Part shown: positions 1 to 64,000 of the stretch, in pieces | How the letters are laid out: the number at the start of each line of letters is the position of its first letter | Position numbering within the stretch: the first letter of the stretch is position 1 | Origin: Takakia lepidozioides | Taxonomy: Eukaryota; Plantae; Bryophyta | Direction: 5' to 3' | Length of the DNA: 64,000 nt | Assembly: GCA_030704615.1 (NCBI GenBank) | Contig: CM060733.1 | Coordinates: forward strand, 76,136,001-76,200,000 | Position numbers and translations under genes: made by a program | The notes under the pieces: model-generated | Told to the model about the DNA's origin: nothing | Database searches by the model: none | Seen by the model: the letters and a program-made list of their open reading frames with translations, nothing else

Positions 1-544
1 CAACCTTGATGATCCGGATGTGTGGACACAAGCATGTGCCCAGCGGGTAGAGTTGTTCAAGAGAGTCATGCCTATGGCTTTTGAGAACCTTTCTATTGCC
101 CAACACCGAGATACAGTGAGATACGCCACTATACGTGGAGGGGGATATCGGCCAGGTGTTTGGCGTTTCCATCCTGAGGACTATGTGTATCTGCAGCAGA
201 CAACGCCTACGACCTTGGATGTCACAGCAGGTCGTGTGATTCTAAGGGTCCGGGAGGTGTTGCTTTCAGGAGTGTTGATTCTGGAGGGTCGAGATGGCAT
301 GGTATGGAAGGACCATGTGCGCAATTGTGCGCCATGCCACCTTCCACATGTGGATGGGAGGATAGATCCCAACCTTGCAGTGGTACCTGCAGGGTTGCGT
401 TGTATGTTATGTGGGCATGCTGGTGGTGCCGCGACCATGTTGATGTGTGACAAATGCTCAAGGGGGTGGCACATGGGATGCTTGACACCGCCACTTGAGG
501 AGGTTCCTAGTGGAGAATGGTTGTGTCCACGATGCCTTGGATAG
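1..544 (+). mobile_element. 3' end of Ty3/Gypsy pol: integrase C-terminal region fused to a PHD zinc finger (5' part outside window)
   Basis: ORF 20..544 is open from the window start and ends in a C4HC3 PHD finger (CMLC...LMCDKCSRGWHMGCLTPPLEEVPSGEWLCPRC). Downstream lie a purine tract AGGGGGGCGA (~797-806) and a TG-starting LTR-like sequence at 808. Confidence 0.8.
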
Positions 545-807
545 AGGTAGTGGGGCATGACAGTGGTGAGGTTGACAATGATCCGAGGTCTAGCTAACGG
601 GAGTTCAATGCCATGGACACCCAATTGAAGCCATGGATTGCAGGAAGGCGAGTAACGATAGGGCTACTTTTGCACCCGGCCTCTTGATCTATTGCCTTCA
701 GATACTGGGACTTGGGGCGATTGATGACCATGCGATGATCTTATTGGGATGGATACTTGTCAGCTATCCGGTGTTAGAGGGACCTAATCACCAGCTAGGG
801 GGGCGAT

Positions 808-1420
808 TGTGGTATAGCTTTCTAGGATTGTGTGCTTAGATTGTGTGGTGGACAACGATGTATGTTGTGGCACGATGCTTAGGTGCACGACAGCTGTCAT
901 AGTTTTAGTTATGGTTATCTAGAATTACCTACTTCTAGTTAACTAAGACATTTTAGATATCTATATTTATATTTTGAATGTTGGAACCTCATTTGGTCTC
1001 ACATGCCAAGTGAGGTGTCGAGCCTCACTTGGGACATGGGGATAGGTTTTCCCCTTGTGAGGATGGAGGAGGCTCATCTTCTTGTAGTTGAGCCTCCATG
1101 AGCCTCTCTCACCTCCATAGCTCTAGGTATTGAAAGGGAGTGTGGTGAAGGCTTTGTACGGTGGATTCCCTTAGCAAAGGTGCCATTGGCTTGACTTAGT
1201 TTATGTGATTGAGTGGATTCATGAGTGGAGGGTTTCCATTATGTTCACTTCCATTATCATTATGGTATAGCTTTCTAGGATTGTGTGCTTAGATTGTGTG
1301 GTGGACAACGATGTATGTTGTGGCACAATGCTTAGCTGCACGACAGCCTCATTGTGGACAACAGTGCCTTCATTGTTTGGAGGCATGTCTTGCAATCTAG
1401 CTTATAGTTCGGCTATGCGC
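808..1420 (+). mobile_element. 3' LTR remnant of the PHD-bearing Gypsy, with an internal duplication and insert
   Basis: TGTGG start directly after the polypurine tract. 808-894 is repeated near-identically at 1261-1347, with a TGTCA...TATCA segment (895-1259) between the copies. The right boundary is uncertain. Confidence 0.5.
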
Positions 1421-15085: not shown

Positions 15086-18000
15086 CCCTAATGGACGAGT
15101 CGACCTGATTCGGGTCGATTGGATATTTCGACCGTCGGTGGGCCCCTTGGATGAATCTGGATGAAGATGGGCCCTGAACGAAAGTTGTAGCCCTTGAGAT
15201 TATGTGCCGGACAGAATTTATTGCACCCTAATTCGACAAATCTTGCGTCGTCAGGATTTTTTGAAGTGATGATGAGGACCCAAAATCCAATGGTTTCTGG
15301 CTCTCCACGAGCTTTGACCTAGCCACGTGGCAGGCAAAATGGGTGTCGGTGGCCCGATGCCAGCGATCGGGTGCATGCAGGGTTGGCATGTCCGCCCGTG
15401 CGGACATGGGATGCCACCCTGTGGCCAGTGATGGGTGGCGGTAGCGTGGAAGGGGCTCTCTCTTTGCGCGCACAGAGTCTGGGTTCCTGGAGCTTGCAAA
15501 TTGTGGCCCCTCTCGCATTTCCTTGGCGCTTTTGTGTGCAGGTTTCGCTTGATCTTCTGTGGATCGCCCGCATTCGCTTCGTAGGGGGGTGTATTTCTGG
15601 GCTTTATTTTCAGGTCATGGCGACTTACCTCTCCCAAGCTCGAAGCGGCGGGAGCTGTTCCGTTTCCTGCTGTGTGTTCTAGACATTACAGCTCGGGGTG
15701 TGATTGCATTGACGCAGCTGTTAGGGCTGAGTGTTTGGCGTTTAGATTCTTGTGCCCTGCCGAATTTTCATTATAATGCAAGTTGTCATTTTTTCTTGCA
15801 TGTCGTTTTGTGAAACGATTTTATGCATTTGGGCTCTGTGTTTTGTGTGGTAGGGGATGGTTGCAGGGGAGTGTGGTGTGTTGGGGTTTCATTTTGCAGC
15901 TGGTTTTGGAGAGTTTGCGAAATTCGCCGAGGTACATCCTTCTTTCCTGTGCTTGGAGAAGATGGGCCATCTGCATTGATTCATCGTGAGGGCTTGCATT
16001 CATTTCCTGTGATCTCTGTCGGTCTCAAGGATTCGTATGGCACCAAAGAGGAAGGACACTCCTGTGCCTGAGCCACCGTCGCCCCCACCCAAGCTTGCAG
16101 CTGTCGCGGAGGTTATAAGGGAGTGGGCGCTTGAGGAGCAGCACTGCACTCCCGAGCAGTGCAAGGTAATATTGGGGTGTCTGTCTCCTGCCTTCCTCTG
16201 AAGTTTGCCTCCACCGCCGTTCGCCAATCGTTGGCCTCGCCACCCTCGTCCTCACAATTTTCGCTTTCTGTTTAGATGTCAGGTGGCTCTAGTTCTTGGT
16301 TGGAGAGAGAGAACAGAGGAAGGTGATAATGAAGGGTTCAGTGACGCTATGAATTTTGTTTTGAGAGATGATGTCTGGCCCGATGCCGATAGTCAGGCGT
16401 CTGAAGGCGTTGGCTCGTGCAAAGAGGTCGGTTCCTGCAAGTGTGACAGCACCTCCCAAAGGTGTGGCGAGGAAAAAAAATAAGGGAGTGGTGAATTCGG
16501 GTGTTGTGGGATGTGTTGGCGGGCCTCTGGGTGCTGGGAGCATGCTTGCCGTCGGTCGGGCTGCTTTGGGGGACATGCATCCCAACACTGGTGCACTGGT
16601 TCCTTTTGGTGAGGGGTCTTTTAATCCTGTTTTGGGCCACGATGAGGCCTCCTCCGACATGGACGAGGATTTTGAGGGTGACAATGGGTACATGGGCGAC
16701 TCTGCTGACGAAGCAGACTGGGAAAACGAGGTGGTTGATATGGAGTGTGATGAGGAAATCTCGGCCGATTTTGTGGAGATGTTCAAGGCGAAGACGTGGG
16801 AAACCAACGCAGGCTCTGACTTTGTGAGTGATAGAGCTGCATTTTTTGGCCCTCAACCTGGTCCCTGCCTGCCTGAGATGAAGGGCTCACATCCGATTTG
16901 GTTTTTTGGTTTGTTTTGGAGGCGGCAGGTGCTTGGGCGAATATGTAGGGAGTCCAATCGTTATGCTGCTGAACCTTTCGGTACGGGCACTTGTGGGGGG
17001 CCTCGGTGGAAAGAGCTCACTGTTCCTGAGCTCAGGGTTTGGATTGGAGTCTGTGTCTTCATGGGCATGAAGAAGTTGCCCCGAAAATGATTTTTTTTTT
17101 GCATTACTCGGAGACATTCTTCACTTGTTCTGTCATCCGCAAAGTGATGACTCGAGATAGGTATGAGGCCATACTCCGTTGTTTGCATCTTATTGACAAC
17201 GCCACGTTGGTAGCAGATCGTAAGAGTCGGAATTATGATAAGCTCGGAAAGCTTAGGTGGGTGTGTGAGGAGATTGTGGATAGGTGTAAAAGTCTCTGGA
17301 ATCTGAACAAAATGGTGACTGTCGACGAGGTGATGATCCGTTACAAGGGGAAGTACTCCCCAATTAGGATGTATATGCCTAAGAAACCATGCAAATGGGG
17401 CATCAAGGTGTGGGCCTTGGCTGACTCGGAGACTTCATATGTCTACGACTTTTCAGTGTATGCTGGTAAGAATGCAGGAGGGCCAGATGGCGAGAGGCAG
17501 AAAAGTGGGAAGGGAGAAGGTTATGATGTGGTCACCCGGCTGGCCGACGGGCTGCATGGTTTGGGCCATGTCATTGTGACTGATAATTACTTTACAAGGG
17601 TCCAGCTTCTATATGACATAGCCAAACTTGGCACTTGGGCCACTGACACGGTAAAAGTGAACAGAAAGGGTCTCCCTCCCTCTTTGCTGAAAATGAAAAA
17701 ATCCAAGACTGCCAAGCAAGGGCAGTCATGGTACAGGATGCATGAGTCCAGGGAGGTGGTTGCTGTGTTGTGGTGGGACAAGAAGGGTGTATTCTTACTG
17801 TCATCTGCAGCTAGGCCAGCTTGCAGCCCTTCCTCTCCTGTGACTGTACGCCGTTTTGTGGGAAACCAGAGAGTGCCTGTGCCATCCGTACCTGCACATG
17901 TGCAATACCAAACGTACATGCGAGGGGTGGATGTGCAAGACCAGCTCAGGGGTGCGTACAGCTTGCAGCTACGCACAAAGAAATGGTGGCATCGTCTGTT

Positions 18001-19690
18001 TTTTTTTCTTATGGATACCACGCTAGTGAATGCGTATATCTTGCATTCTGCAATGAGAGAAGGAGGGGGCGTCGGGCCATGACCCATCTACAATTCAATC
18101 TGGCTGTGGCATATGGTTTGACAGGGGGTTGCTGCACTGACAACATTGACACCACGAGGGATTCAGAATGCACGTTTGTGCATCAGTGCCTTCACACCAC
18201 ACGGCGGCGAGTGTGTGTTATGCGCCATGTTCGTACTCACCATTACTGCCCTGGCTGCGATGGCAACCATTTGTGCCTTGGGCGGTGTCGGAATGAGGCA
18301 CACCGGCATGCCTTGAGGTGACTTAATTCTGGCTTGTTGCACTATCTTCTTTCTTTGTGTGTGCATATGTTTGTGTGGGTGGGGGTTCACCAGGGTGTGG
18401 GACTGCATGCAGGTATGCTGGAGGCTGTGGATGGTGTGTGTGCGTGGGACGTGGGGTGTGGGTATCTCTGATCTGTGGTGGGTATGGGTTCTTCTCAGGT
18501 TGGGGGGTTGTGTGTGTCCATGTTGGTTGATGGGCAGTGGGGGTCATGGGGGGCTGGTGGTGACGGTTCAGTGGCAGTGGAGGGGTGTGGGGGTCATGTT
18601 GCTGCTGGTTGATGGGCAGTTTTGGGAGTGGGGGGGTCATGGGGGTCTGCTGCTTGCTCATTGTGGGCTGTTTTGGTGATGGTTCACAGGCTGTGGGGGT
18701 GATGGGGATCTACTGCTGCTGGTTGAGGGGTTGTGGAGGTGATGGGGGTCCTTCAGTGTTGGCGTGTGTGCGTTGTGTTTGGGTGGTTTCACAGTTTTTT
18801 TTTGGGGGGGGGGTGTCTACACACTGGGCAGATCGGGGGGTTCAACTCCCCCCCAGTTCGTGGATCATGTCTTCGGGGTGGTGTGTGGTTTGGGTTCGCT
18901 GCATTCAAAGGAAAAGCAGGAGCTCACGGGGAGCTTGAACACAGATGGGGCCACATTCGTGACGGTTGGTAGTTGTTAGTTTTTCAGTTGCCTGTCAGGT
19001 GGAACGCCGAAACGTCGGGCGTTCCCGGGCCCTTTTTTGGGTGTCGATTACGTAGCCCCCTTTTTGTAGCCGGAATTGTCTACCGGCTCAGGCAATACAT
19101 GGCCTGAGCTGGGATTCAAGTAGAAATACACGTACTTAGAAATCTCTGCCTGCATTTTGGTTAGAATTCAGAAATTCTTTTTGGAGGTAGTAGGAAATCA
19201 TAGGAGGAACAATTCCACTGGTGGAATTCTGGTTCCAATGAAAATTTCGACCCCTATGGCTGAATTACAGGTCAATTGAAGCAAATAGTGCTTTTTGACC
19301 CCCCTGTTTTCCCATACAAAGGAACCCTATGCAGATTTTGGAATTCTGCTTTGCAAATTTGGGGCAAATTGCTTTAGGTGCCTGAGAATTGGAATGTGGA
19401 TGGGGTCTTGCAAGGAATTTTTTTTTTTTCGGTCCAACTGCCTGGTCAAACCAATTTTTCCCTCTAAAATTGGAATACACTACAGATTTAGAGCTTACCA
19501 TTTTGTTATAATCTTCCTAATGACACGGTGAAATGGGCTGAAAGTCTTACAGCAGGTGCATGAGGTAGGTAGCGTCCTTTTCATACGGTTGATCCCTGTG
19601 GATGTTTCTTAGTTGGGAGATATACCCTCATCCGTGAGGGTATGTGCTGTTTTGGAGTGGGCCCACCAAAAACAGCCTTGTCTATTAGGG
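15086..19690 (+). mobile_element. piggyBac-superfamily DNA transposon, ~4.6 kb
   Basis: Left TIR CCCTAATGGACGAG (15086-15099), with TTAA at 15081-15084. Right TIR CTTGTCTATTAGGG (19677-19690) matches at 12/14, both mismatches C>T. The element contains the piggyBac transposase. Confidence 0.8.
16368..18321 (+). pseudogene. piggyBac transposase (DDD) with C-terminal cysteine-rich domain; two homopolymer frameshifts
   Basis: Catalytic motifs VDEVM, TDNYFT and GVDVQDQL; YMPKKPCKWGIKVWALAD; KKWWHRLFFFLMD; CRD VCVM..YCPGCDGNHLCLGRC..AH. Frameshifts at the T-run ~17090-17100 and the G-run ~18064. Confidence 0.92.
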
Positions 19691-21509: not shown

Positions 21510-21870
21510 CCGTAAGCTATCAACCACTTGAGTGGCTGGTGATCCGTGACAAGGGTGAAGAGATTGCCGTATAGATAGCACCTGAAGTGTGCCACGGCCC
21601 ACACTGCAGCAAAACACTCTCCTTTATATGAGCTATACTTAGCCTCTGCAGCGTTGTTTGAGCAGCTACCATAAGCCACTACGAACTCTCTTCCCTCATC
21701 ATCCACATGTGTGAGCACCGCTCCAAGCCCCAGCATGCTCCAATCTGTATGCAGCTGAAAGGGACGCCCCCTGATAGGTCGTCTCAAGATAGGCGCCGAG
21801 GTCAACCTCGCCTTGAGCTCTTGAAAAGCTCGTTCCTGCTCATCTTCCCACTACCACTGGACCAGTGGGT
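21510..21870 (-). pseudogene. Ty3/Gypsy RT-connection/RNase H fragment
   Basis: TSAPILRRP..FQLHTDWS..GLGAVL..VVAYGS.SNNAAEAKYSSY.GECFAAVWAVAHFRCYLYG..FTLVTDHQPLKWL. Confidence 0.9.
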
Positions 21871-28259: not shown

Positions 28260-29618
28260 TCATGCGTGTAAAATGTGACGACAAACAATCTCTCGTAGCT
28301 CAGCACCTACATTCAGGCCCCTGTCGACAACCGGCTCTTCATCATGAGCTAGATGATCTCGCTCCCTGATTGCTTCAAGCGCATCCATGTCGTTGAATAC
28401 ATCATCAAAGTCCACTTCCTTGAAGTCCACAAGTATGTTGTAAATGATGCAACATGCATGGACCACCTGTGGTAGAAATGTAATATCAAGGCCGCTTCTC
28501 CAACCCACTTCCTTGAAGATACGTTTGAGCCGTCCAAATGCAATCTCACTATAAATCCTTGCTTTTGACAACTGATGGTTGAACACGGTCTTGGCTCTAG
28601 AGAGTGCCGGAGCATTGGCAGCTCTTTTGTAGCTAGGTATCAGCCAAGGAAGGCAAGGATATATGGCATCCCCGAGAAGGATAGGTGGGATAGTCTGGCC
28701 ATTGTCCAAAATAACGCTTTCTCCCCGCAATATAGTTCCTTGAGAAGCCGGATAGAAGAGTGTGGAGTTGCGCAACATTCTCGAGTCATTCATACTTCCC
28801 GGCTCCCCAACATACATATCTACAAATTTTGCATCAGGATTGACAACACCATTGAGTAGTATCCAAGTCTATTGCGATAGTCGAGTTTGATATTGTTTGC
28901 AGGGGCTTGAATCCTGATTTGCGTACAATCGATTACACCCACTACATTTGGAATTCCAGATCTACGTTCATTTTCAAGCATGGATGTCTTTAGGGTATCA
29001 CCAGCCTCCCATCGAAGGTGGTGACCTAACACAAACACAATAGCAGGTACAACTTGACGTAAGAGCTCATATAGTATCGCTGCACCAATTCCAAATGCTT
29101 CTGTCATTTCAGCGGTAGTTGCTGCCCATATCAATTTGTACAGTGGTCCCTGAACTCATTTTCATGATCATGAGCCATCGAGCATCATCATACTCCAAGA
29201 GAAATTCCTGAAACCATGCTCGAGACCTATGCTTCACCCACATCCCAGATGAAATACAACCTCTAGGCTTGCAAAACTTGATAATGAAAAGAGTGTCAAG
29301 CGCTGAACGCCATTGCTGGATGCATTGGTCAAGGCTATCATCTTTGTCCACATCCATGCCATGGACCTGGGAAAGTGACGCATCCACATGCAAACTTGGT
29401 GTCTTGGACCCTAACCCAAAGAGCTCTGAAAACTGATCCATTATGTATTGCATGAGGACGAGAATCTCAGCAAATGCTAAGAAGACATCCTTGTCCATCA
29501 TGGGTTCCATCCTGTGAATTAGCCCCCCACTCGTTGCTTGAAAAATAAAATATGACAGCCTTCTCGTTGTTGCTCTCCAAATTCCTGTTTCCCAACACAA
29601 AGCCGGTACCAACCCCAT
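28260..29618 (-). pseudogene. PIF/Harbinger transposase (HARBI1-like DDE_Tnp_4 nuclease)
   Basis: GVIDCTQIRI; PGSMNDSRMLRNS; LLGDAIYPCLPWLIPSY; FNHQLSKARIYSEIAFGRLKRIF; VVHACCIIYN. Split into 3 ORFs. A possible element terminus ...GCGGCGGGGGCC|TAA lies at 31208. Confidence 0.9.
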
Positions 29619-33292: not shown

Positions 33293-33421
33293 TAATGGTA
33301 GTTTATTAGGTGTATTACAATGTTGGTCTGGTATCTCGGTTTCGCCGGGTATCAACACGGGCATCGACCCGGGTCTCTCCTAACCTAACCTACTGTTATC
33401 TGTTCCCGTAAACATTTGTAG

Positions 33422-33945
33422 CAGGGTTGCACGCGTCAGTGACATCACGTCACGTCACGTCGAACCTGACGCTGACGCGATCAACGTCACGTCAGTTTTG
33501 CCGAAAAATCAGTAAAACATGAGTTAGGTGAAAAATATGCCACGTAGGTGGACACGTTGTATTCCAAGCGACACCTTGGCAAGTGAATGAATTATTTTAT
33601 AAATTACTCCATCCGCCAATATTTGAGGTTATTTTTAAATCAATATTGTTAAATTGGTGCGACCTCCAAATGGTGGTGGTCACAGAATTTATCTTATTTT
33701 TTAATAGTTGCGACCACCAGCAGAGGGGTTGTCACAGCATTTTTGTTTTTTTTAAATAGATGCGACCACGAGCAGGGGTGGTCGCATTTTTTTCTTTTCT
33801 TAAACAGTTGCGACCACCGCTACTGGTGGTCGCACAATTTTTATTTTATTTGTAATAGGTGCGACCACCATCAGGAGGGTGGCCACAACATTTTTCTATT
33901 TTTTAATATCTGCGACCACCAGCATGGGGTGGTCGCAGCGTTTTT
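33422..33945 (+). mobile_element. 5' end of a second hAT element with subterminal palindromes
   Basis: CAGGGTTGCACG start, CACGT repeats, then GCGACCACC..GGTGGTCGC palindromes (33660-33940). Orientation fits the plus-strand transposase at 36720. Confidence 0.6.
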
Positions 33946-33959
33946 TTGTTTTTTTTAAT

Positions 33960-36398: not shown

Positions 36399-36719
36399 AA
36401 CCCCCCCACTAAAGCCTGCTGCTGTCACCCCTAAGGCTCCTGTTGGTCTCAGTCTGTGTAAAAATTAAGGGTACCCCACAGAACCCGTAAAAGCGTTAAA
36501 GTCCCAAGCAGCCCTCTAACAGTCTTAGGAAATGGGCAGTAGTGCTGCTAACTTGTTTTGTCTAAGTCATAAACCAGCGGTTAACACATCCTCACACCCA
36601 AAACCCTAACCACAGACTTAAGGTTGAACGAAGAACACTAGTGTACTTGGTAGATTTGTCAAGAGCAATAGAAGTTAGATCAGAATGCGATGGCCCAACA
36701 CTACGGCATCAATCCAAGT

Positions 36720-38085
36720 CTACATACACACCTCCGAGTTATCGCGATCTCCGTACATGATTGCTAGAAGAGGCTATGTCTGACCTCACCCAAAAGGTGA
36801 ATGAAAAGACAGATGATTCTCCCCGGAAATATGGAAGCACTATATGTGCGGACGGTTGGAGTTCTGTTACTAATTGACCACTGTTCAATGTCATGCTAGC
36901 GGGGGAACAATTTTTGGGATCCGTTGACACAAGCGGGGAGAGAAAAGATGCACGTTATCAAGCAGGGTTGTTGACGAGTTTCATCGATAAAATTGGAGCT
37001 GATAAAATTGTCCAAGTGTGCACGGACAATGCATCTAACATGATTAATATGGCCGATATTTTGATGGTACGATATCCCCATCTATATTACCAAGGGTGTG
37101 CTGCTCATATCTTTGATCTCTTTTTGGAGGATTGGGGAAAAGAATCATGGATGAAACAACTAGTAAAAGGGCAAAGCCGGTTGTGACATTCATTTGTACA
37201 CATCACATCCCTCTGGCATTGTTTAGAAAGCATGAATCCAAATACAGCCTTAGGTGAAACCCGCTTTGCCACAAACTTTTTGATTGTGGATCGACTGGTG
37301 ACTGTCTGGAGCAGGTGATCATTGACCCTCAATGGGATGCGTATGTGGGCACCTTACGCGACTCTCGTAAGTCCAAGTCTTTGAGTAAAAGTCGGAGGGT
37401 CCGCGCAATCATTCGCTCCGACAATTTCTGGGCGAAATGTGCAAATTTTGTGTACATGGTGGAGCCGGTGTTGATTGCTTTGCGGGAGTTTGATGGAAAA
37501 TAACCAATAATGGGTAAAACATGGTTGTTATTGGAAAACCTTGAGAAGCACGTGCAATCCTTGAGGCGTCCTCCATTTTCTATGGACGATGATTTGGCAG
37601 CAAGGACCGAGGATGCATTTTACGACCGCAAACGGATGGTTCGCATGGACTTGCATTATGCGGGGGTCTTGCTGAATCCATTCTTGCTGGACAATACGGA
37701 TTTGAGAGACGATGTGGATGCCAAAGCCAGGCTTATACGGGTCATCATGCAACTTGCGCCTTTGAACATGGCAGAGCGAACTTTGTCCAAGTATCAGTGC
37801 TTCTCGGATCGCCAGAATCCTTTCCATGACATGTCGGATCCAAAAGCAATGAACATGTTGCCACATGAATGGTGGGATCTGATTGGAGCTGGAGCAAGAA
37901 CGTTAGCTCCCATTGCAAAGCGTATTCTTGCTCAAGTGTGTTCTGCCTCATCCTGTGAGCGGAACTGGAGCAGTTACTCGTTTGTTCACAACAAGATTCG
38001 CAATAGGTTGAATCCTGCCAGGGCTGACAAATTGGTTTATGTCTACACGAATTGTAGGCTACTGCGAGAGAGGACAGCAAGTGAT
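36720..38085 (+). pseudogene. Second hAT transposase pseudogene, close paralogue of 4972-7430
   Basis: ADGWSSVTN; GSVDTSGERKD; CTDNASNM; CAAHIFDLFLEDWGKE; CSASSCERNWSSYSFVHNKIRNRL. Truncated at ~38085 by the Gypsy element. Confidence 0.9.
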
Positions 38086-40379
38086 GCACGGATTTGCTCA
38101 AAAAGGTCATCCCCAAAATGAGATCCACTCCATCGATCTCGCAGATGGTGAAGTTCTCACGTCCCTCCCAACTCCCCAGTTGAAGGGGAACATCAATTGC
38201 CACCTTGTCGCCAACTGTGGTTCTCCTTTGGCAGAACGCACCTCAATAGAGGTCCCCACGTCACTTGTCGGGAGTCCCAGCTTTTGTGCCGTTGCCGGTG
38301 TCATGAAGGAGTGCGACGCTCCTGTGTCCACCAACAATGACACATTAGTTCCGGATATTATCCCATCCACGAACAATAACTGACTCCCTTTTCGTAAGGC
38401 GCCAGTTTCCTGATACAACTCATAAGAAAATTTGCCTACCTTGCAAGTCCTGGCGACCACCGCTTCCACCAAGCGACTGATGGTATCTTCCGACAGCTCC
38501 GTGGTCGCCCGAGTCATGTTCAATTGCCGGGGCTTCATGCACTTCTTGGCCATGTGCCCGGGCTCCCCGCAATTGAAACACACTCCATCAAAGGTCATCC
38601 TCTGTCCGCCATAAGCTGCTCCACCCGCTTTTCTTCGAAGCACAGGGTGCCGCCTTGACGTGTGAAGGCCCTCCCTTCGATTTCCACGTGCCAATGTCGC
38701 CGCGTGGCCTATCGCACTTCTTTTCCGGTCGGAAGGAGTCACTTTCCCGCCGGGTCTTCTGTGGTTCAGCTCCGTACAGCCTTGTCTCTCACCCCTAGGG
38801 ACATCCGAGAAACATTCAGCCCTCTCAATTGCCTCGTTCAAAGTCTTGGGTGGCTTCTCCTCCAACTTCCGCCTGGCCCATGGGGCCAGTCCCGCCACAA
38901 AGTTGAAGACCATTTCTGGTTCTGCCATGTCCGCGACTTCGAGCAACAGCACATTGAAAGCCTGGACATACCCCCGAATGTCATCTGTTTGCTTCAAATT
39001 CCTCATCTTGTCCCGGGCAAGCCATGACGCGTTGAGGGGCACAAACTGTCTCTTCATCAATTCCTTGAACCCACTCCAGTTCAAGGTTTCCGGACTTGGA
39101 CCTCGGTCGTGAAGGCGTTTCTGCCACCATTGTTGAGCATAGCCTCTCAAATAGGTGGGAGCCACTTCCACACGATCCTCGTCACTCAACTTGGCCGTCC
39201 GGAAGTACTGCTCCAGCTCCAAGAGCCAAGTGTTGAGTGCCTTCCGATTTCGGACGCCCTCGAAGGTGCCGGGTTCATTAGGCTTCACCTTAAACTTTGC
39301 CTTAGTGGAAGTGGCATTAGCCGCCTTCAACACGTCTTTCAACGTCCCGCCAAACTGCGCCAACAACCCTTCCCAAAAGGCTGCCGGCATGGGAGGCATC
39401 TCTTGGTTTGTCGGAGCTCTCAAGGATTCCTCGGGCTCCGACTCCTCGGATTCCTCCCGCTCTTGGGTGGCCTCGTTTTCGGAAACATGCATCGCTTCCT
39501 CAAACGGCCGCCTCGGTGACACGCCGCCCCCATCGGGCTCACCGGGGTCATCATCTTTTGGGCCGTTCCGCTTTCGCTTCGGCTTGCCCGACCCCATGAT
39601 GAGGCCAATCCCAAGGACGATCGCGTACTGAACTCTAAGCTCTGATACCAAGTGTCGCGCACCTCACTTCGGTAAGCTCCCCTTCAAGTCATAGTTACTC
39701 GCTTTGATGCGCGCGCCTGACTCCCAACCTGGCCGCCCGGGCCAACTTGGAGCTTCGGCTGCTCACCGGGACATAACGGTCTCCCCTTCGCTTCCCACTA
39801 AACCCTCCACCTAATTGGGACTAGGAGAATTCCCTTTGGTAGATGGCAGTCCGGAACAGCTCCCCACTCTTTGGTCGCTTTCCGGCTCGCTCGCTTACTC
39901 ACTAGTTTTTGGTCACCAACGGGCTTGCACCGTTCTCGGGGTTACTACTCCCTATATATACTTTTGTAGCTGTCCACAGGGGTTCCACAACCAGCCATGC
40001 CATTTTATGGCGAACCACCACGAAAACCCTCGACTCCCGGTGATGAGTCGCGGTGAGTCTTGGCCCGCTCACCACGGCCCCTATGGACCGTGATGAGTCC
40101 CAAGACTCCCCACGACTCCCACCACGAGGTCTCCGCCCCCATGGTGAGTCCTATGCCACCCCCACTAAGTCCTGCTAAGCTACCACCACCCCTTGTGGAG
40201 CCACCCCCACCGCAACCCGGTGTGCGGGGCTCCACCTAGTGAGCGCCTCCGCTTCCCTGAGTGCCTTGGGCACTCAAGGGTGCTTCAGCCCCCCATACCT
40301 ATCGCTGCCGCTGCCCCCACCACAGGGGCAGCCCCTCATGTGTCCCGACCCCCTGCCCTCAAGGCAAAGGGCCGCAACA
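38086..40379 (-). mobile_element. Ty3/Gypsy 5' part: LTR (39653-40379), tRNA-Met PBS, gag and aspartic protease
   Basis: LTR bounded by TGTCGCG...CGCAACA. PBS TGGTATCAGAGC (minus, 39639-39650). ORF 38107..39651 has retrotransposon gag (FEGVRN..WLLELEQYF..LRGYAQQWW), CCHC knuckle CFNCGEPGHMAKKC and protease LVDTGASHSF, with DLILGM after a frameshift. Confidence 0.9.
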
Positions 40380-44066: not shown

Positions 44067-47000
44067 TTACCTGCTGGTAGATTTGGGCTTGGCCAAGTCA
44101 GCAAGCTCCTCAATCAGTTTTCTCTCGTCATTGCTGAGACGCTTCGGAATCTCAACCTGCACCCGCACCAGTTGATCACCTCGCAAATTTGGCTTCCCCA
44201 ACAAGGGGACCCCTCGCTTGCCCATCACCAATGTTGTTCCTGGCTGGGTCCCAGCTGGAATTTTCAAGTCCACTGTACCGTCAACAGTTGGTACTTTCAC
44301 GGCTGTCCCAAGAATGGCATCAATGTAAGAGACTTTGGAAGAGATCAGAATGTTGTTCCCATCACGTTTCAGCTCGGGGTGTGTCCGGACATTTATGAAG
44401 ACATACAAGTCACCAGGAGGACCCCCACGCCTGCCAGCATTCCCCTCCGAGCGCACACGAAGCCGGCTTCCGGAATCCACACCAGCAGGAACTTTAAGGC
44501 TGATCCGCTTGGTTTTCCTTACCCTTCCATCCCCACCGCAGGTTGTGCATGGGGTTGAAATCTCCCCTGTGCCCCCACATTGAGGGCAGGTCGATACCTG
44601 TCGAAAGTCACCCAAGGGAGTCTGGGCGGTTGTCACCACCTGGCCTTGACCTCCACAGGTGCTGCAACTGGTAGGTGAAGTACCAGGCCTAGCTCCTGAT
44701 CCATCACAAGTGCTACAAGTCTCCAGACGGGTCACTTCAATATCCTTGTCTGTCCCAAAGACAGCATCCCGAAAATCTAGTAAAAGGTCGTAGCGCTCAT
44801 CGTCACCTTGCATTGGCCGGCTCCGAGCGGCCCGGGACCCCCCCATACCTCCCATACCCATGCTCCCAAAGAAGGTCTCGAACAAGTCAAATGGGTTATT
44901 GAAGTCCTGCCAAAATTGCCAACATTTATGTTAGTGTTATTTGTACATCAACAATGGCAACTTCCCCACCACCACCACCCCTCATCAGTTTTTCACTAGG
45001 CTTGGCAAGGCATATCCCTGTTGCAGTGCGTGCCTCATGTTGATGAGACATGTTGTGGTGGGATATAACTTGAATGCACTGATAATGCAATGTCATTCTC
45101 TCCATCTACATCCTCACAAGCACATTGGGTAAGTTGATAGACTAGCACATAATTCATCACTGTAGGCTGTGATTGTCAATGTCCATACTAATCCTAATAC
45201 CAGGCATGCAAAAACCAAACAGTGAACAAAGGGTAGGTCAGGCATACCCCAGGTCCTCCAGCTCCTGCACCCTTGAGACCAGCCTCCCCATATTTATCAT
45301 AAATAGAACGTTTATCGTCATCAGACAACACCTGCACAAAGTACACCACTGCTTATGAAGCCTTTCACCTTGGCATCAAAATTTAAATGTGTAACACTCG
45401 AAGTAACCAACTCCAAATACGATAGTGTATGTAGGTTCAGTTACAGAATTCATTCAAAGACACAGGCATGAGCCTGTGAAGGCACCAGAGGAGCATTTGG
45501 ACACACAGAAGTAATGAGTAGCAGAAAATCACCTCATATGCATTGCTTATGTCCTTGAACTTCTGTTCTGCTCCAGCATCTCTGCAACACAAGCCAGACC
45601 AGCCCTGATCAGCGTTGCTTGCACATTAGAGCGCATCCAAGTCCAATTCTCTTGGAAATTATCACACTTTCAATCCGGTTAAGTGGAAATTGGCAACCAA
45701 AGCTACTATGATTGGATTTCAGCACAATCCTAACAATGGTGTACAGCACTAGTAAACATTTTAATAACTGTGAAATAAAGTGAAAGTCACCGTACTTGTT
45801 GACATCAGGATGGTACTGTCGTGCCAGTCTCCGATATGCTGCACGCAGAATGAGGCACTTGATCATCAGCAGCTACCATGTAAGATACATTCGTTAACAT
45901 ATGAAATAAACAATACATCCTGATATGAAAAGGGAGTAATGTAGCCATTTTTCTGAGTTCCACTGGGTTGCCTGTGAAAGGGTCTGAAAAGGTAGGTGTG
46001 GACACAAGTCTACTAAACATATAAGGCAGATAGAGGTGACCATGCTTAACAAAGCCTAAAAGCATATTAACCATACACGAACTGAGGAATTATCTGGTCC
46101 TGATAAAGTGACTTGTACCCCCAAATAAATTCCAATGCATCTGCAGAACTCATAATGCATACAGCCTTACGGAAAGTGTGCCTTTCAGTGCAGCACTAGA
46201 AACTTACCACTCTTTATCTCTGATTTGTCTGAAGTTTTGCCAACTCCAAGAACCGAGTAAAAGTCCTGCACAGAAACCCTTCTGTCACACCCTCTCTCAT
46301 CTAAGACATTTACTTGACAACCCTTTCTTAGATTGAGCAGACCTAGATGTCTCATGCTCCACACGAATGCTCAATATGGATCGATAAGATAGCAAACGCC
46401 ACTCAGAGATTGGTACCCCTTGCACTCTTCTCATGCCTTGCAACGTGCCCACTTATGCTCCTCCTCCCCCACTCTTTGGACATAAGAAATAGAAACTTGA
46501 ATATTTTTTTCTACCCTTCCTGGATTGAGACTTGTCAACGTATGATGCCAAAAACTTCACTTGCTGAATTCTCCTTGGTAAATAAGTGAGTTACACAAGG
46601 AGTCCCAGAGGCGAGCCCGTGTGCTGCCATTATATCACAAAACAGTCAAACTGTACTCATCATCCTAGGCTCAGCACTAGACCGTCATCCCTGCAGATTT
46701 ATTCTCTTCAGGGAGCGACCCTCTGCAGGACCATCAAGAACATTGTCCCTCCACGTGCATTCATCAAATTTCAAAATCTCGAGGCTGAGCCTAAAGCCCC
46801 AGCCCTGTTGGGGCCTAATAGCTGGACAGCTCACACACAGCGGATTGATGCTTGTGTGAAGAGCTTTCTAGAGAAGATCTGGAAAGCCTAAACTAATTGC
46901 TTACATCAAGGTTAGTCCTACTACCGTGATGAGCCCCTCACAAAGTTAGTGTCTTTTCCCTCTAGTTCTGTGCTGACTGGGTGCAGGGTCTATGGTCACA

Positions 47001-55543: not shown

Positions 55544-58500
55544 ATGGCTTCAGGGCTGGGGACTACGATCAATCGCATACTTGACCTCTGTCGTGCGCAT
55601 CCCCAGGTAACAACTTATTTCACGAAGTTATAAATCTCTTTCAATTGTGTGAAGGCTTTAGGCACATGCCTACCACCGAGGGCAGTTTTTTGGAGGGTCG
55701 ATTGTACCATGTATGGAGGTACATGTGTTTGAGAGGGATAGGTAAAGAAATGATGATGGGCGGTTGTGGATATGCGTGCAGGGATTGTCGCAAAAGGTGC
55801 TGGATGAAGAGCTGAAGGTGGACATGGAGCTGATGAAGCAAGCCATCAACTTTCTGCTTCAAAAGGTGGGCATGTGGGAGGCTCTCATCTGTGCCTAAGA
55901 CAAATTTTTGCAGAGAGTAATGGGTGAAGTGATATCAAGAGTAGAAATTTGATGTGGCTGTCAGTTTCGGGTTTTAGGTTTAAGCCCCCAAATATGTCTC
56001 CTTATTGAGAGGTTTCATGAGTGATTGCAGGCAAAGTTGCAAGTGTTCATGCAGGGGGACTCTTCAATTATTTATAAGGAGCAAAACATTGAGAAGGCTG
56101 CAAAGTGAGTATTTTTGCTCCTCTGTAGATTTTTGCAGTGTGTTCCTAGTGCTTTTCTGAGGGATCGTTGTAACATGTTGATTGGATTGTGGGAAGTTTG
56201 GACCTTATCATGTCGTGGACTCTCTTCATTTAGATCATTTTCTCGGCTTTGGCAAACATGCACAGGATGGCTTTTTGGATGTAATTTACCCTCTGGAGTT
56301 AGATGGTTGTTTGTCATTTGACTCCAAGGATGATGGGTCCTTCAGATTTAGAGGCTTGAGTTCAGAAGACATGCTGGTCTATCAGGCCATACAGCAGTCT
56401 GCAAGTACAGGTACGAATGATGAATGTCGTTTGTGTTGTTATTATTCAATAATTTTTGAACCTTGCTCCATAGTGGACTCATACATAGTAGCACTCGGGG
56501 TTCTTTCTTCCTTCATAAACCAAGTACAAACATCTTGAACCAATGTCCCCTGATAAATCTCAGCCAAAATAGATTGGAAGGGACGGTGGGAAATTGTCCA
56601 TAAGATGCAAGACTCTACAGCCCATACTTATTCTTTTCCTTGGTTTTGATTGGCACTGCAAAACCATATCCATAGACCCCGCCCTCCAAGTTCAAGGCCC
56701 TCAAAATTGGAAGGACGTAGAGGGAGGGTGTTCGCTTGCTGACAAAGAGGCTTGTTGTAATCTGTAGGGATATGGACAATGGATTTGAAAAAGAGGACAA
56801 ACTTACAGCAGCCACAAGTGAACAAGGCTCTGAAAAATTTGGAGAATCGCAGTCTGGTGAAAGCTGTCAAGTCAGTCAATGTATGCTCTACTTAATATGT
56901 CACATCACATTCATCCATCCAACCCATGTTCGACGCAAGAGATCATGACCAAACTGTTGACAGTATAATTATAGCAGGGATTGTCTGAGTCACATGCATG
57001 GGCTTGAACCTCATGGTTTGTCAGGAAAAACTTAGGCACTGAATGGCAGTGGAACATCTACTCAACTGTTTGTTGTTATCTGAGTAACATACTTTTTTTA
57101 CTCCATACTTACCAATACCATACCTATCCATCAAATACACCTCCTCTTTTAAGGCTCCGGCCGTACATATCAACGAATGATAAGGTTACAATTTCCATGT
57201 CTGGACAAATGCTGGGACAAGAGCTTTGTTGTGAGTATCTATGCATTTTTTGTGAAGCAAGTATGGAGCAGGATAAACCTGGACACAAATGATGATGTGG
57301 TCCTTGGCATTGGCTATCCTTATAGAAACAGGAAATACTCACTACATCACTAGTGGGAGCAGCAGCTTTAAGTCTGTCTTAATGGACAGTGTTTATTGAA
57401 ATTGGCAAGTGGTTTTGCACCTATAAGAAACATGGTTCTTCAGATAGAGGGATCACCCCAAGTCAGTTACACATCTACAAACCATTTGGTTGACTTTGAG
57501 TGGGGCAGAGGTGTTTTCTGTGAGGAAACGACTGCACTTCTTTCCTGCTGCCAGTTTTACTACATTTCTATGTCAGAGGTGTGTGGTAGCAGTCTTACTG
57601 AGGGTTGGTAAATGTCTTGCCGTTGGTGCAGAACAAGGCCCGCAAGGTGTACATGTTGTCTGAGTTAACGGGAAGTCACAGGGGGTGCTTGGTACACTGA
57701 GCAGGACTTTGTTGATGCGGTCAAGCAGCAGTGCTTGCACTGCAGTTTTACTACATTTCTATGTCAGAGGTGTGGGGTAGCAGTCTTACTGACGGTTGGT
57801 AAATGTCTTGCCGTTGGTGCAGAACAAGGCCCGCAAGGTGTACATGTTGTTTGAGTTGGATCCATCAAGGGAAGTCACAGGGGGTGCTTGGTACACTGAG
57901 CAGGACTTTGATGCAGAGTTTGTTGATGTGGTCAAGCAGCAGTGCTTGCACTTCATTTTGAAGCAGGCAAGCCTTCTCAGTGCTTTTAGCTTCAATTTGT
58001 GGTTCTTCCTATTAAACAAGCAGCTTTCAGCATGAGGACAAAACAGCTATAACATGGAGGGGTGGATGGATCACCTGTGTGTGTGTAGGGACTTGCAACT
58101 TTGGAGGATGTAGCAGAGGCTGTTCGTAAGTCTGGCATAACTAAGGTGGAGTTACGCCTAGAAGAGTTCAAACAGGTGATTTCTCTCTCCCCCAAGCAAC
58201 GTTTCTGGGTGGTTTCCTGTTTTTTTCCTTTCTAGGTAGAGACTGGTAGGTAGGAAGACCCGCAAGGCCACCTATGCCCACCTTGCACTGGGTACAACAC
58301 GGAATTTGAAAGTGAAGATCATTTCTTCTTTCACTGCCATTCTACTATGAGATTCAATTGGGAGATTCAAGTGTCTATTCCGTGATGCCCAATCTCTCAC
58401 GGAGGTCTTCCATTACGAGGATCAGAAAAGCTTGGCAGCTTAGCTGTTGAATCTTAGACAATCCCTTGAGCAATAGTTGCTCTTGGGCTGCTTCTGGCCC

Positions 58501-59972
58501 CTCTTTCTTGATTCTTGCTTCCTCTTGTCCCATAAGCTCTTTGGCTTTCCTAGGACGTTATGAAGTACTACTTCATTTCTCTCTCTTTTTTAGATGCATT
58601 TGTGGCCAAATGGGGGCTAGACCAGCCAGACATCAACATCTGAGTCACTGTAACCCGATTGTTTTGGTCATTTGCAAGTGCTCTGGAACATTGGGCTATA
58701 TTCTCATATCCTGGTGGGTAGTACGGATAATCTGTACCAGGAGGGTTGGTATCCACTGTGGACTATCCCTTCAAGGCCCTAGTCCCCTCATAGCCAACAT
58801 TTTGCATATGGTGAATGAGTTCATTTTCTCTTCCTTATGTTCATGCTGTCATTTCAGGCTGATGGCAGGTCCATGAGACTGTTCATTCAGAGTACAACAG
58901 TGTTAGTTGCACTGATGATTGCCTTGTGTCACTCTTTCCTTGTTGCTCTTCCTAAAATGTCTTTGTTTTCATTATCAGATCCTAGACACGCTTGTATTGG
59001 ATGGAGATGTTGAGGAGGTGATGGGTGGTCCTGCTTCAAGCCTTACATCATTCTCAACAGTAAAGTTCTCTCACGTGTAACATGATCAGAGATCTAACCT
59101 CTGCTAGCTCCTCAGTCCTCACATGGTTTCAAATATGTCCTGCTAGTGACATTGGTGTCGGGTATAGTGCATGAGGGCCAATATGACTTCTCCATCTTGT
59201 GAAATATCTCATAAATAATTTTGCTGACCCACGCCTGGCATTGAATGCCAACAATAGCAGAACGCGCTGTTCACATCTTGTTCTTTTCCAATCTCTTTCA
59301 GTCTCTGACATCTAGTCATGAATTAGGAGATGGAATTTAAACACATTACACAGAAACCAGCTGACTGATTTCAATCACAGCATGCGGATTACAGTGAACA
59401 ATATCCACGTGCTGGAGAACTGGCTGTAAAGGGAACATTTATGGTGCAGGACACTTTGTGTTACAGGGCCTCTAAATCTCGGATACCTGAGTCATCTGCA
59501 TTCACCAGTCTTCCATGTGGTATTTGCCCAGTATGTCCCAAACCTTTTCCTCTGTTGTGTCAGGTGGTCTTCTCTCTTTCAGGTATTTGCCCACTTTGCG
59601 ATGGAAGTGGGGCATACAAATATGCAATCAACCTTGGTCTGATATAGTAACCCTCAGGAGTAGAGTGAAGCTCACTTGCCTGGATGGTTAATGGTATAAC
59701 TTAGATCACCTGATCAAGATAATTAGTCGACACTTGTCACAAGCATCACATTGGCAGCAATACCTCCATAAGTTTAATGACTGTCGTGTATGTATAGTTC
59801 CCAACAGTCAATCTAGCAACTACGTTGTCACCTGAGGTCTTTGGGTTTACTTCCAAATGCTTCAGTGGGCTGATGACCGTGTTGTGGGCTGTAGGTTTTG
59901 CAAGAATGCACGCCAGATGGCCTCATTTCACCTCAGACATGCGTTTACTTTGATGATTGGCTGAAATTCTAA
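55544..59972 (+). CDS. POLR3F: DNA-directed RNA polymerase III subunit RPC6/C34 (multi-exon)
   Basis: Exons encode MASGLGTTINRILDLC / ..AINFLLQK / FRGLSSEDMLVYQAIQQSASTG / IWTMDLKKRTNL..KALKNLENRSLVKAVKSV / NKARKVYMLFELDPSREVTGGAWYTEQDFDAEFV / ILDTLVLDGDVEEV / LPCGICP / VLQECTPDGLISPQTCVYFDDWLKF* (Fe-S Cys cluster). The start codon is inferred. Confidence 0.9.
57552..57952 (+). repeat. Tandem duplication of an RPC6 intron/exon segment
   Basis: 57552-57741 duplicates 57743-57952, with 8-bp and 12-bp deletions in the first copy. Confidence 0.9.
58265..58445 (+). mobile_element. Degenerate LINE zinc-finger fragment in an RPC6 intron
   Basis: CPPC...ESEDHFFFHC motif resembles the LINE RT C-terminal CCHC finger. 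Confidence 0.4.
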
Positions 59973-60844
59973 GCGGCTTCTCCCAATGGCCATTCTTCAT
60001 CCCAGTGCACATCAGCTGTTCACACATATTGGACACTGAGCAGATAGTGTCTGTCCCTAATTTGGTCTTTCCTTAGAGCTTTATGAGCATTGGTTCTCGG
60101 AACTGCAAGTGGAAATTCGCACAAGAGCTTTGTGAGGGAACACTTCTGATGAAACAGCAAACATGGATGCAAGGTTGTCTAGCAGTAGACTTGTATTTCC
60201 TAGAGCTTTTTTGAAGGCCCACCCTCTTTAGGGCAAACCGCTTCAAAATCAATCTGAATACATGCGCAAGCATTGAGTCGGATGGTGAACCTAAGCTCAG
60301 TGAGGAGATGGCAGAAAACCTTAATCTGGTTGCCTTCATTGGTGTACTTTATTGGGAATCAGTGGTGCAGAAGAGAACCATCTGTTGGGCTTCTCCTCGC
60401 CCCACACTCATATTGCAGGATTGCAGAGTAAAATGTGTTTGATGTGTATATGTGATGACTCTCATGTTTAATGTGTACATTCTGAAAGTATGTTCTCACA
60501 GAGGCATCTCAGGCACAAGCTCTCCAACCACTCCTAGTCCACCAGAGCAACAACATATGCTTCGATTTTGCTATGCCCAGTACATGGGATCCATGATACT
60601 TTTAATGTAAACCCTGTATAGCTTTATAAAAAGACCCAAGTGGGGTGACTGTACAAACTGCAAAGGGGAGAAGCAAAATCTCATAGAGCTAGATATAATG
60701 ATAAACAGAAGTCAAACTATAGTAGTATGATACTTGTCCTCACCTGTACAACCATGCACACATCCCATAGTACATGGTTTGCGCATCACCCACAAGAACC
60801 GGATAGCATCTCCATATATTGTTATCCGAACATCATGAAACCAG

Positions 60845-63800
60845 ATGGTTCATGCTTATCAAACAGGTGTGCACTTTCATTCGCCATTGTTGTGGGACGA
60901 CATGGAGGAGATGTATGGAGCTACCAAGGGGCCTCGTAGGTACTCTGGAGCTGTGGGCACAATCGAGTTGGATGACTTTATCCAGGAGTTCGACAGCTGG
61001 TGTGATTTGCAGCAGATGCGCAATCCACAGCTATTCACCCCATTCATGGCGTGGAAGGGACTGTTCCAGCATTTGGAAGGCCCGCCTATGGACGATTACC
61101 ACGAGTTCAGGCGAGGACATGAAGCAGAGATTGAGGAGTGGAGGATGTATTGGTCACCTGACTACGTCTCCATTACTCGAGGCACGACGCGACCAGTAGC
61201 TGCATCAGTACCAATAGCTCCCACTGCCAGCACTAGTAGTGGAGCAAGTAGTGCCGGTACTTCTGTAGGTGGTACCCCAGTTCAAAAGGTGCTACTACTC
61301 CTCCTGCCACGACTACAACACATGTGCCTAGATTCAACCCGGTGGTGGAGTTCTTCCAGGAGTTGCGGAGGAACTACCAAGGTGTACGGACAGAGAAGCT
61401 GCGAAGTTTGCAAGACTTCCAGCGCAAACCCAGTGAGAGCCTGCGAGAGGCCTACACTCGTATGAGGCGCTTGATAAGTGTGACCCAAGGGATTACTGAA
61501 GCTCAGGCAATCCAGTTTTGGTATGGAATTCTGGACAAGGAGCTCAAGAGAAGGGTGCGAGATGCAACCCTGTTACAAGCAGCCCAACCCACATTAGCAG
61601 ATGTGTTTCTGCTGGCTGAGCGGATTGAGCTCAACATGGTGGAGGAGCGAGTTGTTACAATTGGATTTGGCAAGGACATGCCTGCACGGGGCGCAGCTGT
61701 CAGCCCACAGGCACAAGGGACTGCCCAACAGCGTGGTCAGGGGGGCAAGGTTTCGCAACCCAAGTTCCATGGAGCTTACAGGGGACCTCAGGTGCAGAGG
61801 CCCGTGGCATCTTTTGCAGGCCAACAACAACCAGGGGTGATATGTTGGACATGTGGAGGACCCCATGTCAAGAGAGATTGCCCAGAGAATGGCAGAAGGC
61901 CGGCACAAGCACAGCCTGCACAGTTGCAGTGTGGGCATTGTGGCAAGTATGGGCATGGAGATGCCCAGTGTTATGACTTGCATCCTGAGTTGCGCCCAGG
62001 CTAGTTCCAAGGGAACAATGGTGGCCGGGGGCGAGGTGGACCAGCCCAGAGAGGACGAAGTGGTCGGGCACGAGGTGCAGGCTAAGGGCAAGCTCAACAT
62101 GGCCAAGGACGCGGAGGTCAGGGTGTTGATCAAGGCATGGCCAACCGGCTTCAACAGCTAGAGCAGAGGCTCGCTGCCATGGCTATAGCTCAGGCAGTAC
62201 CGGCTCCCAGGCGGGATGGTCCACCTCCTGTTCCTGATGGAGGAGATATGGGAGGCATGGGATTCATGTGCGGAGCAGCACTACCACTAGAGCAGGTGGA
62301 GTCTGCTGCAGCCGTGACTCGAGGAGCAGCACGAGATCCTGAGCCACGAGGTGCAGAGGTGGAGTTGGATCCACAACGTGGGGAGGCAAGCCGTCAAGCG
62401 AGGCTGCCTCAGTCATTCACCTTGGCGGAGACAGTGTCAACGCCATCCATGGCACCTAGTTCTCGCCTGACTGTTACCGAGGCGGAGGTTTCTATGCCAT
62501 TGGGGAGAGCTACACGTGCAGCACTGACACCTGCTACCAAGGCTAGTGCAGCCGGTGTGTTATTGGGGGCAGCCACCTCTGTGTGTCAAGCCCCACTGTT
62601 CTCGGCAACCATGATTGCGACGCCGGGGGTAAGACCAACTGCAGTGTTCAGACTAGCAGCAACACTCTGTGAGAGTGGGGAGGTCACTTCATCTTCTGCG
62701 GAGTTAGTGGAAGGTGTAGTGGCAGAGGGATCCTCGGATTTGAGGGTCAAGACTGCCACGGCTGCGCCCTGGCAAGCTGCAGCTGCCAGGTTGACGGAGC
62801 TGCCAGCTAGGCCAGCCTTTGAGCGCACCATGGTGACACCTGGAGTTGTCTTGTTAGACAACCAGGATGGCATTTTCTCTTTGAGTGGACCGGCAGGCAA
62901 GAAGTACCGGCCACTGCGGGTCTTGTTGGACTCGGGAGCTCAGCCACTGATGTTGGGCAGGGCTGCTATTGCAGGTTTGGGCCTCATAGAGGCGGATATG
63001 GAGCCTTGTCCTTTCCAGATACAGACATCTCTGGGAAGATCAGAGCAGGCTCGGGGCATGACACGACATCAGTTGGCCATTAGACTGCAGCCGGATCACC
63101 CTACAGATGGCTCAGTGATGCGAGCCAAGGCCATTGTGACAGACGCGGTCTCTTACGATGTCCTCGTTGGTGGGGCAGTATTATACCTCATGGGCTTCAC
63201 CCTGGACTTTTGGGAGGAGTCAGCATTCTACAGGCTTGGATGGCAGTCAGGGGATGGTCGTCGTGCACAGCTCCCTGTGACATTCATTGGGGGTATTGCA
63301 GCTGCCCAACAGGGCAAGATGCCAACACTAGCCGCCTTTACAGCTGCAGTTAGTTGGCCTGGAGAGTTGCTGGAAGGCAATGCCCATGCAGAGGATGTGC
63401 CACCTCCAGCAGAGCAGGATGACATGCATGGTGTGGCGGAGTTGCCTACCATGGTTGCTCACACTCCATTGTGGGGTACGAGCAAGGATTTGCAGCAGGT
63501 TGCTGATCGACGGGTGCAACAAGCCTGGGTAGAGGCTTTTGTACCGTCAGGAGAGGAGGAGAGTGCGGGTATTGCACCAGGACCACCTCAGTTGTCACCA
63601 TTGGATACCACACCTATTGTGTGGCAGTATCCGGATGGAGGCATTTGCCTTCTGGACTTGTTTGGCGGGATCAGCACCGGATTGGCTGCTGTGCTACAGG
63701 CAGGTGTGCGGGTAAGGCGTTACCTGTATGTGGAGAGGGATGAGACTGCACGACGCATCTCACTGCGCCATGTTGCTTAGTTGGTACAGCAGTACCCTGC

Positions 63801-64000
63801 TTTGTTGCCGGTGTCTGCAGTTCGTGGATACCAACAAGCCTTGCCAGCAGACATTCGTTGTTGGGGGCGCCGGATTTGGAGCAGGTTGGCTCCATTGATC
63901 TGGTAGTGGCAGGTTGGCCCCGCCAAGGGCATTCATCAACCGGGCATGGCAATGGATTGCGAGACTCGAGGACGGGTCTGTTTTGGGAGATGGTGCGGAT
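60845..64000 (+). mobile_element. Ty3/Gypsy-like gag-protease-DNA methyltransferase polyprotein pseudogene (continues past window end)
   Basis: gag (LDDFIQEFDSWC; FQRKPSESLREAYTRM), two CCHC knuckles (CWTCGGPHVKRDC, CGHCGKYGHGDAQC), aspartic protease VLLDSGAQP..YDVLVGG, then a C5-MTase. One frameshift at ~61285; in-frame stops at 62002, 62083 and 63778. Confidence 0.88.
63640..64000 (+). pseudogene. DNMT3-like cytosine-5 DNA methyltransferase domain inside the retrotransposon pol
   Basis: Motif I LLDLFGGISTGL; motif II YLYVERD; motif III ADI; motif IV IDLVVAGWPRQGHS (catalytic Cys codon replaced by CGC at 63921-63923); then GLRDSRTGLFWEMVR. Stop at 63778 and a 1-nt frameshift at ~63856. Confidence 0.85.

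Follow-up and report, generated by a model that had tools for sequence, protein, structure and literature searches.

Why retrotransposons keep DNA methyltransferases has been a question since 2018, and one obstacle is that the hosts known until now are difficult to handle. The end of a 64,000-nucleotide stretch of the Takakia lepidozioides genome, here called the window, raises this question for a land plant: an earlier note, made from the letters alone, had read there a Gypsy retrotransposon whose polyprotein carries its own cytosine-5 DNA methyltransferase (DNMT) after the protease. Is this a genuine element, and what would it gain from the enzyme? We find that positions 60902-64000 hold a Gag-protease-DNMT copy, dead and lacking its 5' end, of a Gypsy-type family that is highly repeated in its host, and its identity as a member of such a family with a DNMT3-like methyltransferase leaves very little room for doubt. 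Apparently intact domains occur in Marchantia, where genetics, methylomes and methylation mutants make the question testable.

A decayed copy at the end of the window

All parts of the copy lie on the plus strand. Family-like DNA begins at about 60860, some 40 nt upstream of the gag ATG at 60902; the summed depth of host contigs rises sharply at this point, and in run X1 the loose ends of 26 contigs lie before 60862. The left-edge segment delimited by this jump (60853..60901) lacks repeat A of the 5' end together with the greater part of the leader. Because similarity starts about 40 nt before the ATG, as against about 1.5 kb in relatives (repeat-to-gag distance 1433-1637 nt in 12 of them), the copy lacks its 5' end, and a search of the 64-kb window for a 5' repeat ahead of gag gave none. 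A short repeated sequence, at which the summed depth reaches about 10,900 (flank 72.5), is present just 5' of the truncated element at 60557-60707. A multi-exon host gene for the RNA polymerase III subunit RPC34/RPC6 (56000-60400, plus strand; two exons match PF05158) closely precedes the element.

The gag reading (60902..62001) runs from the ATG through a frameshift near 61275, which the earlier note had missed, and a capsid-like part to the two zinc knuckles that it had found (61843-61881 and 61930-61971); gag was recognised by tblastn to the Marchantia protein Mp4g09160 (P0002) and by a weak match to PF03732 (E 1e-3, under the cut-off). A Gag-protease linker (62002..62849) leads to an aspartic protease with LLDSGA at 62923-62940 (62850..63250, edges approximate), identified by homology to P0002 and by PF13650 at E 0.04; protease profile matches are stronger in relatives than in the window copy. 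Knuckles, protease and motif I of the methyltransferase do share a common frame, as had been claimed, but stops at 62002 and 62083 interrupt it.

The N-terminal part of an inactivated DNMT3-like C5 methyltransferase occupies 63622..64000 and ends with the window. It contains motif I (LLDLFGGI, 63649-63672), motif II (YVERD, 63727-63741), a stop at 63778, a 1-nt frameshift near 63853-63855, motif IV (IDLVVAGWPRQG, 63894-63929) with arginine at the position of the catalytic cysteine, and GLFWEMVR (63975-63998), the motif numbers following the usual C5-methyltransferase scheme. Every motif that had been named, from the knuckles and LLDSGA to LLDLFGGI, YVERD and GLFWEMVR, was present at its given position, and the suggested profile check returned a PF00145 match over an 85-aa frame (63744-63998; E 6.5e-5) of 22.9 bits, just above the curated cut-off of 22. 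The copy is also dead, as proposed: its reading is broken by two frameshifts (near 61275 and 63855) and three stops (62002, 62083 and 63778), and the catalytic Cys is replaced by Arg.

The tblastn alignment to P0002 comprised 860 aa in frame 1 at 52%, with 78% over 94 aa in the N-terminal part and 63% over 54 aa past the frameshift, and by these values the similarity is far above chance. In a quick tree, the partial domain, whose row fills 37% of the columns, fell within a 13-row group (support 99) together with Marchantia, Calypogeia and Sphagnum-type loci, a placement that points to a bryophyte-like host among the land plants. The window breaks off within the DNMT, of which it shows motifs I, II and IV only; motifs VI-X, reverse transcriptase (RT) and integrase are therefore known from relatives, and the stop junction and repeats of this copy are likewise read from them.

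Selection on the family in the host genome

In run X1, 29,841 contigs were found on 59500-64000, and their summed depth, which is not a copy number, rose from 72.5 in the flanking DNA to 0.5-1.2 million within the element. Runs X1-X3 represent one sample, possibly the source of the window, and the site counts given here come from overlapping contigs of that one sample; runs X5 and X6, from other studies, also contain the element. Among these other host copies, the catalytic codon encodes cysteine in 852,316 of 852,758 units of depth, and at position 63778 nearly all depth carries a sense codon, not a stop. Of 30 listed rows of sequence change, 22 segregate among copies and five are private to the window copy (three, under 10% in X1, were excluded). 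Nineteen of the 22 segregating changes are synonymous (expected 26-37%, p<=2e-6), as against none of the five private ones. The DNMT of the family was thus under selection, and the window copy decayed alone. Comparison of three near-intact loci agrees with purifying selection on this domain, the dN/dS of their DNMT being 0.09-0.12; between copies that have decayed the signal is weaker, at 0.37-0.50.

Relatives in land plants and green algae

A search with the protease-DNMT junction retrieved 13 long homologues, of which 12 belong to Marchantia and the remaining one to Sphagnum fallax, and further searches gave 73 (DNMT query), 476 (representative search, E<=0.001) and 156 matches (profile search), with retroelement domains alone among the best 120 of these 156. 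Named members come from Marchantia, Sphagnum, Calypogeia, Coleochaete (a protein extending just into the start of the DNMT), Closterium and three chlorophytes; no protein named Klebsormidium was among the matches listed, and the unnamed ones could include one. The Marchantia retroelement gene models are Mp4g09160, Mp8g17980, Mp6g11220, Mp2g26090 and Mp8g15430, and MpDNMT3b (Mp5g09290) is absent from those found. The public gene models P0004 and P0014 (Marchantia, Sphagnum) appear to bypass a conserved stop through an invented intron, which hides a layout of two open reading frames (ORFs).

In the chlorophytes Tetradesmus, Hariotina and Monoraphidium, a related DNMT stands between RNase H and integrase, and the PHD tail is kept (P0303, P0320, P0328, P0071 and about 60 unnamed proteins). 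RT and DNMT trees mostly set the two domain orders apart; both are quick, unrooted trees, that of the DNMT built on 96 of 165 rows after removal of near-duplicates and with no host DNMT3. A link to the Selgy/Phygy clades was unsupported in the available text of PMC6317226 and in our literature search.

Element architecture and split repeats

Intact relatives such as the metagenome loci L026 and L031 show the order gag (two knuckles)-protease-DNMT-RT-RNase H-integrase-PHD, so that the RT, RNase H and integrase anticipated downstream of the DNMT are indeed found, in relatives; the protein P0216 also has protease, RT, RNase H and integrase in this order. The 80 metagenome loci analysed are the best 80 of 313 confirmed.

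The paired LTRs that had been expected are replaced by split direct repeats. In seven full-length loci, a repeat A (about 290-340 nt) stands at the left, and a purine tract followed by B-A-B stands at the right (B about 110-185 nt, with a short B2 in L062); no two identical LTRs were present in these loci. Complete repeats were seen in these seven of the 22 loci reaching the PHD finger, many of the others falling short of the flank. Elements start with TGTCAT and finish with A(C/T)GACA (TG...CA), and the inner B-A joint consists of both element ends placed head to tail around a 2-nt spacer. Six of the seven full-length loci are flanked by a 4-bp target duplication, the match coming from one of two candidate ends in two of these six. 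Short target duplications are the product of a DDE integrase, and the split repeats imply an unusual integration route for such an enzyme. No tRNA primer site was evident, and none of the 10 loci viewed has a TGG beside repeat A. Membership of the DIRS order was considered and rejected, since an rve integrase and a protease are present and no recombinase match was found. LTR finders probably miss the family because its repeats are split.

At the other end of the window, a second and related element is represented by its 3' end (2..1345, plus strand), with an integrase C-terminus and PHD finger (2-544; PF00628), a purine tract (about 793-803), B1 (806-892), a 2-nt spacer, a presumed A2 (895-1258) and B2 (1259-1345). 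Its 65% match to ORF2 of the intact L026 and L031 and its 89-nt repeats, which are 97% identical, make it likely to belong to the same family as the 60902-64000 copy. On the minus strand, 21518..21856 is an isolated piece of RNase H from that lineage (79% to Marchantia P0009, 70% to L026 ORF2).

The window further contains the remnant of an integrase from a more distantly related Gypsy element (9537-10164, plus strand; 29-39% identity) and a hAT-like DNA transposon with long subterminal arrays of a palindromic unit of about 50 nt (2300-9000 and 33400-33950) and transposase remnants at 4972-7424 (minus strand). A Gypsy gag-protease (38107-39663) breaks into a second hAT-like copy (about 36700-38100). 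There are also a piggyBac-like transposase (16365-18082, plus strand; PF13843, E 4e-57), a Harbinger-type transposase fragment (28260-28868, minus strand; PF13359) and a large exon of a DnaJ chaperone gene (44067-44930, minus strand; PF01556, PF00684).

A conserved stop after the methyltransferase

In L026, an ORF1 of 1369 aa is followed, after one TAG, by an in-frame ORF2 of 1047 aa (RT to PHD), and L031 likewise has one TAG. By a stop pattern defined after the junction data had been viewed, a junction stop is present in 29 of 35 loci of subfamily 1 (Sphagnum-type) and three of four of subfamily 3, and in none of the 30 loci of subfamily 2. The earlier reading of the DNMT as part of the polyprotein stands as far as its place after the protease is concerned; in the subfamily with which the window copy groups, a conserved stop precedes RT, and the enzyme is not simply part of Pol. 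It shares one ORF with RT and RNase H in subfamily 2 (L043) and in P0216, and is separated from them by the stop in subfamilies 1 and 3. Several liverwort proteins terminate about 95-100 aa past the last DNMT motif, consistent with such a stop.

Three of the four subfamily-3 loci read TAG-CAG-TTA or TAG-CAA-TCA, an exact fit to UAG-CAR-YYA, the readthrough signal of TMV (PMC2754532, available text). The subfamily-1 context, CAA-CCC or CAA-CCT, is one base off, and nine of its 29 stops are TAA; because of this off-consensus context and an ATG that usually lies just past the stop, reinitiation is possible in subfamily 1. From these contexts we consider readthrough at the post-DNMT stop probable, and in the branch of the window copy the DNMT is likely to be made at the level of Gag. 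Since subfamily 2 is without the stop, a Gag-level dosage of the DNMT would be inessential.

The methyltransferase domain

In sequence comparison with solved structures, the intact relative P0017 matched DNMT3A best (E 4e-11), and a profile from the relatives' alignment ranked DNMT3A (3e-18) before DRM (4e-9) and HaeIII (2e-7). The predicted fold of P0017 (mean pLDDT 67, mostly 80-90 over the domain) matched DNMT3A at E 1e-15, with a TM of 0.78 over the target. Motifs I-IV-VI-VIII-X follow one another in unpermuted order across relatives. In the 154 near-complete domains, taken from 278 with any match, the catalytic set is retained almost throughout (Cys in 152, Glu in 154, the two Arg in 151 and 152), and Glu replaces the Pro before the catalytic Cys in 29. 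The CpG observed/expected ratio of the elements is 0.33-0.69, with no CpG-rich signature. We consider it probable that the enzyme, where intact, acts on DNA.

Proposed role of the enzyme and alternatives

On balance, we favour as the best overall explanation that the element's DNMT, encoded directly after the protease, methylates the element's own newly made DNA. The leaky stop would make Gag-protease-DNMT the main product, with the RT-to-PHD part arising by readthrough; many DNMT copies would be packed per particle and then released by the protease. The enzyme could methylate double-stranded cDNA before or at integration, such that a new copy would arrive pre-marked. Whether the element's own cDNA is the main substrate we judge to be evenly balanced; the idea of cis-methylation was also raised by de Mendoza et al. 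2018 (PMC5890265, available text). That methylation of cDNA or of the insertion site would serve to evade host silencing, as the earlier note proposed, is still conjecture. As to the repeats, the product expected of standard reverse transcription starting from the purine tract is B-A-body-B-A; less firmly, the inserted A-body-B-A-B might be this two-repeat molecule circularised and opened at the first inner CA-NN-TG joint. Such a circle intermediate is tentative: the mirror product A-B-A-body-B, also predicted by the circle model, was seen in none of the seven full-length loci.

An active enzyme could instead act on chromatin after nuclear entry, the PHD finger reading histone tails and the DNMT methylating the target site or the insertion, which would quiet it and limit harm to the host. 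The PHD finger closes the integrase in both domain orders, moss DNMT3b deposits de novo and CHH methylation (PMC6453930, available text), and a self-limiting role was also raised by de Mendoza et al. (PMC5890265, available text). We nevertheless find this reading unlikely, given that DNMT and PHD finger are distant in the polyprotein, separated by the stop in two subfamilies and presumably split by the protease, and that the great abundance of the family in its host fits self-limitation poorly. It is less likely still that the domain is a nucleic-acid-binding or structural module, or an RNA methylase, with DNA methylation incidental. The replacement of Pro before the catalytic Cys in 29 of 154 domains fits a non-catalytic role, as does the inactivity of the Klebsormidium domain in yeast, but the catalytic Cys, Glu and both Arg are near-invariant across chlorophyte and streptophyte members, and SymbioDIRS, a related retrotransposon DNMT3, methylates CG (yeast and SymbioDIRS results: available text of PMC5890265). 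The presence of only the first third of the DNMT domain in the window might suggest that a dead gag-protease was joined by chance to a piece of a host DNMT3, or that the assembly is at fault. Both are rejected as practically impossible: the same intronless junction recurs in named proteins from liverworts, moss and algae as well as in loci from metagenomes, and thousands of host contigs cover it.

Returning to self-methylation of new element DNA, the widest reading would be an old green-plant Gypsy lineage, from chlorophytes to mosses and liverworts, with one captured DNMT3 in two positions and, in land plants, a Gag-level enzyme made by readthrough, predicted cDNA self-methylation and a two-repeat circle cut at CA-NN-TG. 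As a whole this combination is speculative and rather doubtful; if true, it would be a self-methylating replication cycle that neither standard LTR elements nor DIRS elements have. An element that is highly repeated and brings a de novo methyltransferase could, in addition, contribute to land-plant methylomes and confuse counts of DNMT3 genes.

Comparison with known systems

The closest known system, to which the earlier note had pointed, is KnitGypsy-Dnmt3 of Klebsormidium nitens, described as combining DIRS-like repeats with the domains of Gypsy elements and a domain like DNMT3 (PMC5890265; this and the following comparisons refer to the available text of each source). Shared features are the Gypsy domain set, an intronless, non-permuted DNMT3-like domain with conserved catalytic residues, purifying selection, the DIRS-like repeat layout and a streptophyte host. 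Because domains and repeat layout agree, compared by description, a common lineage is very probable. In KnitGypsy-Dnmt3, however, the DNMT lies in the ORF of RT and RNase H, whereas here, for two of the three subfamilies, the DNMT is cut off from them by a conserved stop, and the present family occurs in land plants at very high repetition, as against 33 DNMT genes in all in K. nitens. The KnitGypsy-Dnmt3 domain gave no DNA methylation in yeast, an assay that its authors deem inconclusive (PMC5890265). The same text mentions neither a PHD finger, a 4-bp duplication or chlorophyte members of the element, nor Marchantia or liverworts.

Our search of the accessible literature found no description of the family in land plants, in line with the earlier note; such a description was absent from the available text of PMC12344493, bioRxiv 10.64898/2026.05.21.726589, 10.1101/363937, PMC10952607, PMC11982613, PMC6453930, PMC6317226 and 10.1101/2021.02.12.428880, two of which write 'streptophytes', a term that includes land plants. 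Within the same search, neither a conserved readthrough-like stop after the DNMT nor chlorophyte relatives with the DNMT after RNase H were found.

SymbioDIRS-Dnmt3 also carries a retrotransposon DNMT3-like domain, which methylates CG in yeast, but it is a dinoflagellate DIRS element with a reported independent capture, whereas the present family has a DDE integrase and target duplications (PMC5890265). The EpiLTRs of Cymbomonas and Euglena are likewise Gypsy-like and combine a DNMT with a chromatin-reader domain; they differ in a DNMT sister to DNMT4 and in an additional adenine methylase and chromodomain, and their authors call them distinct from streptophyte Gypsy-DNMT3 (bioRxiv 10.64898/2026.05.21.726589). 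The bryophyte host enzymes PpDNMT3b (PMC6453930) and MpDNMT3b (bioRxiv 10.1101/2021.02.12.428880) are alike in enzyme class and motif order, but are cellular genes. An element of this kind has thus been in print since 2018; what appears to be new here is its land-plant range, its very high repetition, the readthrough-like split after the DNMT and the second domain order in chlorophytes.
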